From Eledone cirrhosa (Eukaryota): a DNA stretch of 64,000 bases. The notes under the pieces were generated by a model, which was not told the DNA's origin, did no database searches, and worked only from the letters and a program-made list of their open reading frames with translations. Shown here piece after piece: positions 9,621 through 61,921 of the stretch; the first letter of the stretch is position 1; each line of letters begins with the position of its first letter. A program made the position numbers and the translations under genes. Where the stretch lies: contig OZ024741.1 in NCBI GenBank assembly GCA_964016885.1, positions 130,200,001 to 130,264,000 of the forward strand, read 5' to 3'.

Positions 9621-10010
9621 ATTGGTATGGGATGCTTAAAGCGTCCGTATGCAGTAGGCGCTTTGAGCACTCGATGCTCTTACCAAGCAGAGTATAATAT
9701 CACATAAGAAACGGAGAATCAGTGGTGCGACGAATAAAATGTATTAGACATATTACAATCGTTTCTCTGGCGACCACCTCGAGGCACGATCGATGCAATA
9801 ATCGAACCTGACTCTGAAATCGCAAGATCCTCAGATACGTCTGGATTCTTCGAAGCAGAGTGGAAAACTCTGTTTCGAAGAAAACTCTGCGATTTCAGAG
9901 TCAGGTTCGATCATTGCATCGATCGTGCCTCGAGCTGGTCACCAGAGAAACGATTGTAATATGTCTAATACATTTTATTCGTCGCACCACTGATTCTCCG
10001 TTTCTTATGT
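9621..10010 (-). mobile_element. Fold-back HHR-bearing module between (TA)n tracts (arms 9702-9824 / 9888-10010)
   Basis: ~123-bp inverted arms, an inner hairpin at 9846-9882 and an HHR on the minus strand. Confidence 0.8.
9748..9840 (-). ncRNA. Type-I hammerhead ribozyme with extended stem II
   Basis: Minus strand: ACGTAT-CTGAGGA-TCT...AGA-GAAAC-GATT-GTA-ATATGT (stem I 6 bp with one G.U; GUA cleavage triplet). Confidence 0.75.
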
Positions 10011-10263
10011 TATATATATATATATATATATATATATATATATATATATTTATATATATATATATATATATATATATATATATATATATATATATATATA
10101 TATATATATATATATATATATATATATATATATATATATATATATATATATATATATATATATATATATATATATATATATATATATATATATATATATA
10201 TATATATATATATATATATATATATATATATATATATATATATATATATATATATATATATAT
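10011..10263. repeat. (TA)n microsatellite, ~250 bp; one of dozens in the window
   Basis: Read directly from the sequence. Confidence 0.98.
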
Positions 10264-10346
10264 TTGAGATAAGCGGAGCAAGCAAAATTCAAACAATTTT
10301 TAAAAATAAATAAAAAAATATAATTTAAATATTTACCTATTCCATT

Positions 10347-10428
10347 TGCTTTTACCGACGGTTTCACTTCACAAAAGATTGGAAATCCTAGGGACTTCCA
10401 ATGGAAATGTTCAGATCTTCAGAAAGCA
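10347..10428 (-). ncRNA. Type-I hammerhead ribozyme
   Basis: Minus strand: TGCTTT-CTGAAGA-[stem II containing a TTGGAA..TTCCAA hairpin]-GAAACC-GTC-GGTA-AAAGCA, with a perfect 6-bp stem I. Confidence 0.75.
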
Positions 10429-10689
10429 TTTTCCCTACTTAGGACAAAAGTCCCAGGAACGGCAAAATATATTGCCACCTGCCAGCTAACACAGGATCGA
10501 ATGAGCCCGTAAATTTTACCTGTGTATGAACCAGCCCTTAGTAGAAGCAGAAGTAAACATAGACGTGTTGTCTATCATGCCACTAAAAAAAGCAGCTAGG
10601 TAAAACAACGGATTTGTTCGCTACATAACGGAGAATATATAAAAGGAGATCAATATCTCCAGATGTACTAAGTATCCCTGGAAATATAT

Positions 10690-11110
10690 AGGGTGTCTAT
10701 TCGTCCATTCCATTAGTGATCTCACCCGCCTTCATTGCGATCCTATAATTCTCTTTATATTGTCCGTCCATCTGAGTAGAGGCCATCTGAATGATCTTTT
10801 TCACTCATATAGGTACCACTCGACAATTGCACGGTTCCATTGATAATCAGTGAACCGCGTGACATGTTTGGCCTTGACTCCGGTTCTTTTGCTGATATGC
10901 TTGTTTCGGATGTGAATTCTCGGTGAGATTCCCAGCATTGATCTTCCCATGGTTCTTTGTGCCGTTATAAACTGCTGTTCCTCCTTCTTCGTCATCGCCC
11001 ACCTTTCACTTGCATAGATCATTGCAAGTAGAAACGTGATGTTGAATAGATTTGCGCGAGTGGCTTTCTTTACGATTCAATTTCAGCACACGCTTCGCTG
11101 ACTTGAATGC
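10690..11110 (-). pseudogene. RTE-clade LINE 3' fragment
   Basis: MIYASERWAMTKKEEQQFITAQRTMGRSMLGIS..HIRNKHISKRTGVK matches the RTE C-terminal signature (YGSETW..AQRxMERxMLG). Confidence 0.8.
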
Positions 11111-11394
11111 TCTCCAATCTTATTAGTGATGTCACGTCCCATAGTTATAACATATACCTCTGCTTTTCCATCAGCTTCTTCGTCTGCTACGAGAATCTTC
11201 CTTTACTTGCATCCTTCGGACTTGCGACTTTCACCTTTCTGTAGAACTCTTTCAGTGAGTTATGATCTTCATCGTTCGCACAAGGCACTGGTCGCTTCCT
11301 GTGTTGAATGACGCTAACACTGAGACGTCTTGCAATATGCGTTGCTTATCGATCAGGATGTAATCGATCTCATTTGCATTCCAGAGACATATAT

Positions 11395-11595
11395 GACCTT
11401 AACAGATTCAGTGTGACACAATGTGTGACAATGTTGGATCCTTGAATTACAGGTATTACTCATTTTTGCCAACTGTGCGGAACGAAGCAACGTGAAATAA
11501 AACGTCTTGCTTAAGGACACAGCGTACTGTCTGGCCTAAGAATCGAACTCACGACCTTCTGAACGGGAATTGAATACCCTAATCACTGAGCCACT
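11395..11595 (-). mobile_element. tRNA-derived SINE (family B); a related copy lies at 17270-17410
   Basis: Minus-strand head GTGGCTCAGTGATTAGG...GTGAGTTCGATTC, then GTGTCCTTAAGCAAGAC..TTATTTCAC, shared with 17300-17340. Confidence 0.7.
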
Positions 11596-11813
11596 TACCA
11601 AGGGGAATAAATATATAGTTTCTCTCTATAGAAGTGGTAGTTACGTTTGAGAGGAGACTGAATTCTATGAATTGAGGATTATTTACTCTTAATGTTGTTT
11701 AGATCAACTTTAACTCTAAGCAAGCTGAAATATGATCAAAATCATTCCAAGCATGACCATCCTGTATTTTTGTTTGCTATGAGAAAAAATCCTCAACGAG
11801 AAATTTTAATATA

Positions 11814-58844: not shown

Positions 58845-58992
58845 CTAAGGCGGGTAAAATTCCCGAGATCCATGGACGAGTTCTCTCCAGCGGTCTCTGT
58901 CCCTCATTATCGCTGCCATGTCGTGCGTCTCCAACAGACCAGTGTCTGTCCTTAGGGTATCAACATACGTTAACCTTGGTCTTCCTCTTCTA
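58845..58992 (-). pseudogene. RTE LINE extreme 3' end, a second copy of 59919-60065
   Basis: [29 protein letters not shown]. Confidence 0.85.
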
Positions 58993-59199
58993 TATATATA
59001 TAAGTATGTATACGTACATACATATATGTATACAGACGTACAGTAGTATGTATATATATATACATACATGCACACATATATATATGTTCGTATGGATTCA
59101 CCAAACATTTATTATAATGCTCGGTGTGTTTGGAACAGCCGTACTAAGAGTGGGAAATGAAATTTCGTTTCATTTTTCCCAGTATATATATATATATAT

Positions 59200-59318
59200 A
59201 AATATTAAAACAATGAAATTAAACACAAAACTGTTAATTCATAGTAAAAGACATTATTTAATAATGTGTTTTACTATGAATTAACAATTTTGTGTTTAAT
59301 TTCATTGTTTTAATATTT
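59200..59318. repeat. AT-rich palindrome
   Basis: AAATATTAAAACAATGAAATTAAACACAAAA..TTTTGTGTTTAATTTCATTGTTTTAATATTT. Confidence 0.85.
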
Positions 59319-59515
59319 CTATCTTGACTCTGTATCCAATTGAATTATCCTTGATAAAAATGTTTGTATTTTAAACTTTGCTTCACGACATCTTCTACAT
59401 ACGGATTACATTCAGTTCTTTATAAGGTTTAGACCCTACCATTGAGTGGTAGATTTATCTGTATATATATATATATATATATATATATATATATATATAT
59501 ATATATATATATATA

Positions 59516-59921
59516 GTTGTGTATAGTGGTAGCTATGGTGCTTCCATAGGCGGTATGCCAAAATTAGCACTCGATATTCATCAGAGTAGAGTGTAGATAT
59601 TATAAAGAAAACGAAAAATCAGTGGACTTAGTTTATTTCGTGTTACAAATGTTTCGCCTGCATGTAGCTCGAGTCATGGTCCTTGTATGGATCTGGCTGA
59701 TTCTACTTCTGCGGGTTCTTTCAGACACGGGTGTTTCGCCCGGAGCAGATAAAATTTGCTCCGGACGAAACACCCGTGTCTGAAAGAAACCGTAGATGTA
59801 GAATCAGCCAGTTCCATACAAGGACCATGACTCGAGCTACATGCCGGCGAAACATTTGTAACACGAAATAAACTAAGTCCAGATGCATCCCTGATTTTTC
59901 GTTTTCTTTATAATATATCTA
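59516..59921 (-). mobile_element. Fold-back module (59594-59921) with a variant HHR in each arm (59639-59729 minus; 59775-59865 plus)
   Basis: CGTGT-CTGAAAGA...GAAAC-ATTT-GTA-ACACG; central hairpin CCGGAGCA..TGCTCCGG. Confidence 0.8.
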
Positions 59922-60340
59922 AGGCGGGTAAAATTCCCGAGATCCATGGACGAGTTCTCTCCAGCGGTCCCTGTCCCTCATTATCGCTGCCATGTCCTGC
60001 ATCTCCAACAGACCAGTGTCTGTCCTTAGGGCATCAACATACGTTAACCTTGGTCTTCCTCTTCTAGTGTGTACATGTAGGGGCTCCCAAAGGAGTACTG
60101 AGTGCAATGTCAACTCTGGATGTCGGTGAGCATGTCCAGCTAACCTCAGTCTCCTCTGTGTCACTTTTGAGCTGACTTTTGGGATGCTCCCATACAGCTC
60201 TGAGTTTTTCATCCTCAGTGTATACTGATTAATGTTCAGAGCCATCCTCAGCATTCTCGTGTAGCACCCATCCACCATTTGAGTGAGTTTCTTGGTCAGT
60301 GTCCAAGTCTCAGACCCATACAGCAGTGGTATAGTGGAGT
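59919..60340 (-). pseudogene. RTE-clade LINE 3' fragment
   Basis: [43 protein letters not shown]. Confidence 0.9.
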
Positions 60341-61743
60341 TATAATATATATATATATATATATATATATATATATATATATATATATATATATATATAT
60401 ATATATATATATATATATATATATATATATACATATATATATACACACACACATATATATATATATATATATATATATATGTATGTATACACACACACAT
60501 AGGTTGTATATATGTATGTTACCTAGATATATGTCGTAGAGCAACATTGGATTTAAAGGTGAATATAGTTAGTATATAGAGAAACATTATAGGACCACCC
60601 TGTTTGTGCCTCTTCTCTAGGGAGATTTATTGCTCCACTACTCTGAACTTATCCTGCACTCACCTATCTATGTGAAATAAACCCCTTTCTAGGCTTGATA
60701 AGATTCATGTTGGTGTGGGTGGAGCTAATGGCAGGGCGTGCCAAGGTCACTAAGGTCCCTAAGATATCCTTAGTTTTGTTTGTCTCCCTAACGGTGGTGG
60801 TGGAAGAGGTGGCAGTTGTGATGGGGGTATTAGAGTCAGTGGTGGTGATGTTTGTGGAAAGTTACTAAATTTAAAGAAGTCTGCGTCTCGATTCTAATAT
60901 AAATATAGACATTCACACACACACGCAGACATACACACAGACACACACATACGCACACACACAATCATATATATATATATATATATATATATATATATAT
61001 ATATATATATATATATATATACATATTACACGCATGCATATACACATGTGTTTATGTTTATATACATACACACGCACACAGACACAAACATTCACACACA
61101 CACACACACACACATATATATATGTATGAAGTCCTACCTACCAACATACATACATCTATATACACCCCACTAAAAATCAGTTTACAATTTACGTACCAAG
61201 CCAGTACTTGTTCAGGGAAATGTACTTCGTAGTCATTATAAAGATTAACGTGTTGTGTCTAAGCTAGGATAGGATTCCCATTTCTAATCTTTTTGAATCA
61301 TGAGATTCAGGGAAACGTCTCGTCTATCAAATCATTATTTCAAACTGCTTAAACTTAATTATTTTCACGCCAAAGCAGCATACACTCTCAAACGTTTAGG
61401 GCCGAAACACTGGCTTCTTGATGGGGGTTTTCTTTTCTGAAGTCATTGTGCTGTCCAGCTCTCCTAAGAGTTTCTTTCGACTCTCAGTCATTCACATATG
61501 TAGTAGTTGTGCGTTAGCCTATACTTAGCCGATGAGATTTAATAGGATTGAAACATATCTAGAGTAGTTCGTATTATAACTCCCATAGTTCAAAATTACT
61601 CCAGCATGTATATACATGGTGGATGGAAAGAAATTACTTATAAATTTTGTCCTACAAAATGATATATATATATAAGAGGATATATATATATATATATATA
61701 TATATATATATATATATATATATATATATATATATATATATAT

Positions 61744-61921
61744 ATAGGAACCAGTAAGACCCCGACAGCTGAGCTCAAGCCGTTTCGACGGCTTAGCCGT
61801 CGAAACGGCTTGAGCTCAGCTGTCGGGGTCTTACTGGTTCCTATTACCCACTCTACTACCTCAAGTATTGAGTACTTTGGTGCGTTATGGTCCACCTGGT
61901 TCCTTACCACATTTCCTTCGT
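61744..61921 (+). mobile_element. Perfect 50-bp-arm hairpin (1-nt spacer at 61794) built from an HHR 3' half, plus a tail; a relative lies at 51624-51700
   Basis: 61744-61793 is the exact reverse complement of 61795-61844; GCCGTC-GAAAC-GGCT..AGCT-GTC-GGGGTC. Confidence 0.85.

Follow-up and report, generated by a model that had tools for sequence, protein, structure and literature searches.

The 64,000-nt stretch of the Eledone cirrhosa genome analysed here (assembly GCA_964016885.1, contig OZ024741.1, positions 130,200,001 to 130,264,000; the window) carries type-I hammerhead ribozyme motifs beside (TA)n tracts. Probably, these modules are 3' ends of nested insertions of the type made by Penelope-like elements (PLEs) in (TA)n, comprising six families of truncated autonomous PLEs and five families of units without an open reading frame (ORF), four of which were likely copied in trans by the reverse transcriptase of Hydra-clade PLEs by means of a hairpin in their tails. 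The family structure, the two fixed 3' ends, the pairing of short with long ends and the position of the hairpin can all be read in the DNA. An earlier note, made from the letters of the window alone, had described a dense population of mostly ORF-less ribozyme modules and had linked it to Naiad PLEs.

Hammerhead motifs in the window and in random genomic DNA

The window was searched with a type-I descriptor (core CUGANGA...GAAA, helix I of at least 4 bp, stem II of up to 120 nt), using 40 local dinucleotide shuffles of the window as background. Nine canonical and three variant-core hammerheads were found, against shuffle means of 0.1 and 0.08, respectively, so that the shuffle check suggested in the earlier note gave ca. 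0.2 motifs compared to the 12 observed. The 12 sites have CUGANGA and GAAA cores, a NUH site and helices I to III in type-I order. The motifs are genuine and far above chance, and self-cleavage is predicted for them. Since helix III is short (2-5 bp) and the loops are mostly palindromic, cleavage would likely need dimerisation or the help of a protein (PMC4209133, PMC11167929).

Eleven of the 21 sites listed in the earlier note passed the descriptor, eight with the canonical core (9748-, 10347-, 50518-, 53635+, 54392-, 55794+, 58111- and 58396+) and three with the variant core CAGAAGA (38173-, 40645+ and 56394+). Eight more are decayed or minimal copies. The sites at 43164- and 35680- (family F4) fail here while other copies of the family pass; 16680+ (F12) is decayed, and 5 of 20 copies of its family pass; 59639- and 59775+ (F11) carry a one-base core insertion, as do most F11 copies examined, one genomic copy reading canonical; and 27104-, 33334- and 49987+ (F10) have a minimal form with a helix I of just 2 bp in every copy displayed. 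The last two sites are unsupported as ribozymes: no CUGANGA half lies within 260 nt upstream of 53161+ in two longer copies, and the descriptor finds nothing at 57057+. A descriptor-positive hammerhead at 16355+ was absent from that list.

An Rfam scan of the window yielded no hammerhead at E ≤ 1, only matches of microRNA models to microsatellites and palindromes. The Rfam hammerhead model does match a short-stem family elsewhere in the genome, and it overlooks the present ribozymes because their stem II inserts are long. Stem II exceeded 25 nt in 35 of 61 motifs from random genomic DNA, reached 117 nt in flanking DNA, and is predicted to fold into irregular rods or two-hairpin branches; among marine Hydra-clade motifs only 1 of 53 was longer than 25 nt (range 10-30 nt), and the published Hydra table gives a short stem II (PMC8557442). 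The long stem II inserts pointed out in the earlier note are thus common, but they do not mark non-autonomy, being also found in the autonomous families F1 (62 nt) and F8 (26 nt).

Random 10-kb stretches of the genome, drawn in batches of 190, 130 and 400 kb, contained 16, 11 and 34 motifs, respectively, against 0-1 per shuffle, giving 61 canonical hammerheads in 720 kb with tandem arrays included. Resampling gave a mean of 5.4 hammerheads per 64 kb, and the nine of the window are not exceptional (P(≥9) = 0.16), contrary to the claimed density; the window is an ordinary sample of the genome and no special locus. If the sample is representative, the 3.0-Gb genome holds ca. 2.5 × 10^5 hammerheads. 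The window has 69 (TA)6+ tracts compared to 452 in the 190 kb of random stretches, a lower density per kb, and the output of a generic repeat finder on the window was dominated by (TA)n. The proposed closeness to (TA)n was borne out in a fresh random sample, in which a (TA)4+ tract lay within 300 nt 3' of 29 of 34 hammerheads, as against 25% of random positions.

Autonomous and ORF-less families

Eight window queries against the genome gave 589-2902 first-look candidates each, which are candidates and not copy numbers. For each family, the best 20-30 matches per query were inspected and followed upstream. Twelve ribozyme families were distinguished, in agreement with the earlier estimate of more than ten: six autonomous PLE families, five ORF-less head-to-tail families, and F11, which was placed in neither group.

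In F1, F4, F7, F8 and F9, a reverse transcriptase (RT) is followed by a C-terminal GIY-YIG endonuclease, and the elements show (TA)n insertion and a 3' hammerhead. Judged by the motif definitions of PMC8557442, these five belong to the Hydra clade. The F7 protein has RWR, DKT, CxCX5C, CxxC and CxH, that of F8 has DKT, CxCX5C, CxxC and CxH, and in F1, F4 and F9 the motifs are partly decayed and still recognisable. F10 is Neptune-like, with a CX2-5CxxC-type linker and a C-terminal endonuclease read at 28505-29248, Neptune not being separated here from Nematis. A Naiad partner was rejected, since all six linked ORFs have a C-terminal endonuclease instead of an N-terminal GIY-YIG before the RT, and canonical hammerheads, which Naiads are reported to lack (PMC8557442), are present. 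The closest named homolog of an element protein is an unannotated Argonauta protein.

Truncated PLE families look ORF-less because their 3' untranslated regions (UTRs) are long (1.1-1.8 kb). In F8, a UTR of ca. 1.1 kb leads upstream into GIY-YIG and RT (loci L151 and L154), and the 40 best copies are >99% identical, which suggests recent activity. A tandem copy of F7 (L231; period ca. 4.7 kb) contains an open frame of 770 residues. Other copies of F1 (L281, L285) have both RT and GIY-YIG 1.8-4.8 kb upstream, with GIY-YIG at 1.8 kb and the RT further away. The broken ORF of F4, whose match to the F7 protein is 39% by tblastn, runs on into the 3' UTR with no intervening TA tract. In F9, which has the CAGAAGA core family-wide, a broken ORF of the window is linked to the 3' end, and continuity through the UTR was read in L099 across a microsatellite. 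The claim that most modules lack an ORF is not borne out at the family level, 6 of the 12 families being 5'-truncated autonomous PLEs. Their copies in the window are as follows.

9621-10010 (-): F1, 5'-truncated Hydra-clade 3' end with a short arm in inverted orientation; hammerhead with a 62-nt stem II at 9746-9842, tail hairpin at 9669-9693
13768-14119 (-): F9 copy, Hydra 3' end, found by self-BLAST
25254-26433: older F8 relative (25254-25575, -) and Hydra endonuclease fragment (26262-26433, +)
27011-30182 (-): F10, Neptune-like PLE with RT and GIY-YIG in broken ORFs (28505-30182), a GT-rich UTR and, at ca. 27104, a minimal hammerhead
33170-35665 (-): second F10 copy with endonuclease fragment; minimal hammerhead at ca. 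33334
35649-37989 (-): F4, Hydra-clade PLE; broken ORF 36164-37989, decayed hammerhead at ca. 35680-35715
38061-40717 (+): F9, insertion of a Hydra-clade PLE with a tailed arm in inverted orientation (38061-38340, -), a broken ORF (38341-39740) and the UTR; CAGAAGA-core hammerheads by descriptor at 38172-38222 (-) and 40644-40694 (+)
43132-43296 (-): F4, short palindromic 3' end; hammerhead at ca. 43164 with a helix I mismatch
47817-48031 (+): F9, decayed copy
49804-50102 (+): F10, 3' end; minimal hammerhead at ca. 49987
54255-55881 (both strands): F7, inverted insertion, young Hydra-clade 3' end; hammerheads 54392-54437 (-, long arm, with tail hairpin 54319-54340) and 55794-55839 (+, short arm)
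55899-56555 (+): F9, 3' end; variant hammerhead 56393-56443
58060-58600 (both strands): F8, 3' end of a very young Hydra-clade PLE in palindromic form; hammerhead of the short arm at 58111-58165 (-) and of the long arm at 58396-58450 (+), with a tail hairpin at 58506-58545

The ORF-less families F2, F3, F5, F6 and F12 consist of head-to-tail units of ca. 488, 325, 2000, 495 and 860 nt, respectively, with one type-I hammerhead each, as in retrozymes (in F12, judging from one copy). The tail of F2 recurs 481-490 nt upstream in 20 of 29 copies and that of F6 482-499 nt upstream in 17 of 29, whereas the same test found no tail repeat within 1.4 kb upstream in F8 (0/29), F1 (0/29) or F7 (0/19). The periods of F3 are 322, 325 and 329 nt; that of F5 is ca. 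2.0 kb, and its tail end continues into the unit start at five loci. The longest ATG frames in these units are 30-71 residues (F2, 30; F5, 71), and tblastn of the Hydra and Neptune-like proteins against the units gave no match. Independent multicopy ORF-less ribozyme families therefore exist (F2, F3, F5 and F6, with F12 known from one copy), as the earlier note had anticipated. The circular-fold z-scores of F2, F3, F6 and F12 (-3.6 to -6.1) would be compatible with circular RNAs and are not proof of them. The units in the window are as follows.

10265-10700 (-): F2 unit (ca. 488 nt); hammerhead 10347-10428 (stem II 50 nt); the copy ends at the short end
15917-16490 (+): F3 unit (ca. 325 nt) with inverted arm; hammerhead 16355-16400, tail hairpin absent
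16601-16930 (+): F12 unit (ca. 860 nt); decayed hammerhead at ca. 16680-16790 with long stem II, tail hairpin 16839-16871
50463-51620 (-): F5, truncated copy of the ca. 2.0-kb unit; hammerhead 50518-50575 (stem II 31 nt), short end
53485-53965 (+): F6 unit (ca. 495 nt); hammerhead 53635-53709 (stem II 36 nt), hairpin 53890-53915 with one mismatch

The F2 and F6 units, otherwise unrelated, are identical over a stretch of 21 nt (E 4e-6), which may be a promoter box or reflect a shared origin. A further family, at L023:449-3403, forms a classical retrozyme-type satellite in which a unit of 482-492 nt is repeated seven times; every unit has a canonical hammerhead and none has a tail hairpin.

Insertion ends, tail hairpin and competing explanations

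As the earlier note had proposed, the (TA)n tracts collect PLE-type insertions, of which the modules are the 3' ends. F1, F2, F5, F6, F7 and F8 have two sharp 3' ends each, both (TA)n-joined and ca. 70-150 nt apart. After de-duplication, 66 of 71 inverted pairs consisted of one short and one long end, and this pairing held for autonomous (46/49) and ORF-less (20/22) families. The two-end signature matches the PLE tail (PMC8557442), and by analogy it may arise as in Poseidon of Anolis, in which such a tail is made by two internal RT starts (PMC11167929). The 5' starts of truncated copies did not pile up at the ribozyme cut in the best-match sample, which is biased (F6, 0/43 within 15 nt; F2, 1/26 within 2 nt). 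This is expected if the template is uncleaved or re-ligated, and cleaved linear RNA was rejected as the template within the bounds of that sample.

Between the two ends lies a hairpin. It is composed of RYTC, an upper stem-loop whose length may vary, a T(N) bulge in the 3' strand, and GARY, and it is located 2-15 nt past the short end and ca. 43-102 nt ahead of the long one. In 17 of 35 families, compared to 1.0 expected, half or more of the long-tailed copies carry it. The lower stem shows paired changes (ACTC/GAGT in 11 families, GCTC/GAGC in 4 and GTTC/GAAC in 3), and the upper stems vary freely; MAFFT failed to align the hairpins because their loop lengths differ. The hairpin is present in the autonomous families F1, F4, F7 and F8, by eye in F9 and F11, and in the ORF-less families F2, F5, F6 and F12. 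The F2 count is just 3 of 14, because most F2 copies end at the short end. It is absent from F3 (0/5) and from the L023-type family (0/18 copies). In 400 kb of fresh, held-out random DNA, 6 of 12 long tails had the hairpin (0.2 expected), and the upstream control gave 0 of 12. Among 78 Hydra loci from marine metagenomes, 45 of them with a hammerhead, 29 of 37 tails had it at a distance of 36-53 nt from the cut on the 3' side (1.2 expected), and so had 34 of 52 5' flanks (3.3 expected); a metagenome scan with one protein query gave no match. Two tandem tail hairpins are apparent by eye in five marine Hydra loci (L374, L375, L388, L391 and L399). The hairpin is a structure common to Hydra elements and four ORF-less families that have no detectable sequence kinship with them, and it is likely the signal by which the Hydra RT mobilises the ORF-less RNAs.

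The following scheme would account for these features. By analogy with Poseidon (PMC11167929), a Hydra RT-endonuclease would bind the hairpin and nick both strands of the (TA)n target, and complementary DNA (cDNA) synthesis would start at two internal sites flanking the hairpin. If the two cDNAs ended early and were joined, the short palindromes would result. The ORF-less units would be copied in trans from uncleaved multimers or re-ligated circles, resulting in 1.x-unit tandems, and the units without the hairpin (F3 and the L023 type) would depend on another PLE partner. We lean, if only slightly, towards a more general proposal that Hydra PLEs across marine animals share a cis-acting hairpin, flanked by the two RT start sites, that recruits their telomerase-like RT, and that in the present genome several unrelated, protein-free hammerhead RNA circles have retained nothing but this structure and reuse it for (TA)n insertion.

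If all modules were instead 5'-truncated autonomous PLEs, the head-to-tail units would be pseudo-long-terminal-repeat (pseudo-LTR) parts of unsampled ORF-bearing elements. This applies to 6 of the 12 families, in which the ORF was hidden behind the long UTRs until longer copies were read, and just 20-40 copies per family were examined out of thousands of candidates. Against it, F2 and F6 have their own tail at a fixed period upstream, which F1, F7 and F8 never show at that scale, and a whole unit without an ORF lies between two tails. We regard this explanation as improbable. It is also unlikely that the ORF-less units are truly non-autonomous with a hairpin acting on DNA, for endonuclease recognition or as a resolution site or secondary target. 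The Drosophila Penelope endonuclease needs tail sequence for recognition (PMC11167929), and the hairpin descriptor also scores on the reverse strand; however, the upper stems repeatedly contain G-U pairs and a one-sided bulge, and the position of the hairpin between the two 3' ends parallels that of the Poseidon tail between its RT starts. Least credible is the view that the units are dead pseudo-LTR-derived satellites spread by recombination at the DNA level, with ribozyme and hairpin as relics, which we consider highly improbable. The descriptor is passed by 11-15 of 30 F2/F6 copies, the copies are 89-94% identical, and L023 is a seven-unit array of another family, all in keeping with such satellites. 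Nevertheless, the copies are dispersed over many contigs; their flanks are unrelated, their TA-joined ends are fixed and their 5' inversions differ, a pattern indicative of separate events of reverse transcription.

Several points weigh against trans-copying of ORF-less units through the hairpin. Cleavage, expression, circular RNA and protein binding are predictions from sequence, the Hydra assignment was made by motifs and not by a tree, and the best 20-30 matches per query favour full-length units. The F12 period (859 nt) comes from 1 of 19 copies, and no short end occurred among the F12 copies examined. By blastn (E < 0.01), the ORF-less units had no homology to the pseudo-LTRs in the six autonomous 3' regions tested, so that no specific donor is singled out. 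For the hairpin, 18 of the 35 families fell below the at-least-half mark, and the 35-family count is partly circular, the descriptor having been written after the motif was first seen. Of the six fresh-sample hairpins, five came from families recognised before, and in that sample 5 of 12 tails also scored in the reverse-complement control, so the descriptor alone cannot fix the strand. The marine counts include near-duplicate records and 5' and 3' copies of single elements. The marine hairpins are, moreover, almost all of one stem variant (38 of 40 GAGC anchors paired with GCTC), and the evidence from paired changes is therefore mainly from the present genome.

Other features of the window and relation to known elements

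The remaining modules of PLE type are as follows.

24752-25150 (+): palindromic 3' end belonging to another hammerhead family, with no upstream core half visible in this copy and a tail hairpin at 25060-25128; a relative in L320 passes the hammerhead descriptor
53127-53268 (+): F13, multicopy PLE-type 3' end; GAAAC core half only, unsupported as a ribozyme
56566-57196 (+): F14, 524-nt head-to-tail repeat; hammerhead not confirmed
59516-59916 (both strands): F11, palindromic 3' end; hammerhead-like folds with one-base core insertion and stem II of ca. 60 nt in both arms, tail hairpin 59569-59592 (-) read by eye
61746-61921 (+): very abundant short palindromic 3' end; no hammerhead in this copy, tail hairpin 61850-61873

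F11 copies share at least 420 nt upstream, and no ORF was found in five longer stretches. F14 is unsupported as a ribozyme unit, with no descriptor match at 57057+ and no circular-fold signal (z 0.5). The 61746-61921-type end gave 92 matches in 39 loci, mostly cut below 100 nt, in which no hammerhead was located. Palindromes between TA tracts at 12396-12833 and 59201-59317, with few or no copies among the loci compared, are probably 3' ends of other PLE-type families.

Positions 1-7750 are a long G/T-rich satellite of trinucleotide type (GGT/GAT units) with extreme strand skew. At 19737-24370 (+) lies a broken non-LTR retrotransposon, in which domains for AP endonuclease, RT and zf-RVT are recognisable, and a Pif1-like helicase fragment at 45460-46382 (+), with a 69-nt repeat upstream, is probably a Helitron remnant. 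An abundant, TA-joined 3' end resembling those of long interspersed nuclear elements lies at 58843-58990 and 59917-60518 (4 matches per 190 kb of random DNA). Local tandem repeats are found at 41609-42068 (ca. 91 nt), 46919-47294 (ca. 94 nt) and 51719-52929 (ca. 620 nt).

The autonomous families share with published Hydra-clade PLEs, including Hydra-1_Obim of Octopus (Craig et al. 2021, PMC8557442), the C-terminal GIY-YIG, DKT, RWK-like and CxCX5C motifs, (TA)n targets, a 3' type-I hammerhead, tandem and inverted insertions, and a tail on one end. They differ in their longer units (F7, ca. 4.7 kb compared to <3 kb), UTRs of 1.1-1.8 kb, tails of ca. 70-150 nt compared to 30-40 nt, and an autonomous stem II of up to 62 nt. 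Like minimal PLE hammerheads (Cervera and de la Pena 2014, PMC4209133), those described here have a short helix III, a palindromic loop (dimer type), a variant with a 2-bp helix I (F10), many families per genome and opposite-strand pairs; unlike them, a stem II of 26-117 nt is common, F9 has a U4A-type core, and most F11 copies have a core insertion. In Poseidon of Anolis (Frangieh et al. 2024, PMC11167929), a pair of internal RT starts sets the tail, extension takes place on both strands of the target, and uncleaved RNA is the main template; however, Poseidon belongs to another clade, an AC-rich stem-loop within the beginning of its ORF contains the starts, and that study did not include a trans-mobilised partner.

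With animal non-LTR retrozymes (Cervera and de la Pena 2020, PMC7229834; Li et al. 2026, bioRxiv 10.64898/2026.07.22.740005), for which PLEs have been proposed as mobilisers, the ORF-less families share low-GC head-to-tail units and one type-I hammerhead per unit. The present units are longer (325-2000 nt compared to typically ca. 300 nt), are known from DNA alone, and occur scattered, chiefly as 1.x-mers that show PLE inversions and have two fixed ends. In Xenopus, 24 of 57 retrozyme families match known transposons, mostly PLE termini (the same two papers), whereas no nucleotide homology to the tested autonomous 3' ends was found here. Hydra PLE hammerheads in (TA)n, retrozymes and a proposed PLE origin of retrozymes are already published. 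Dimeric PLE hammerhead variants have been studied by the Breaker group. The tail hairpin is new, and the interest lies in it and in the mixed autonomous and ORF-less population, rather than in this window. Neither the tail hairpin nor a Hydra-retrozyme link by way of the insertion signature was found in the open-access literature searched (bioRxiv supplements excluded), and the supplement of PMC8557442 contains neither 'hairpin' nor 'stem-loop'.

On template choice by PLE RTs and on the mobilisation of animal retrozymes, the papers cited here argue from co-occurrence and homology. ORF-less units with a full PLE insertion signature and a structure shared with Hydra elements make the link approachable by experiment, with F7 (770-residue open frame) and F8 as young candidate helpers. 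If the general proposal is true, it would provide a defined molecular link between viroid-like retrozymes and their helper retrotransposon. If the hairpin is a portable tag that recruits the RT, it would bear on template recognition by telomerase-like enzymes and on tools for RNA-templated insertion.

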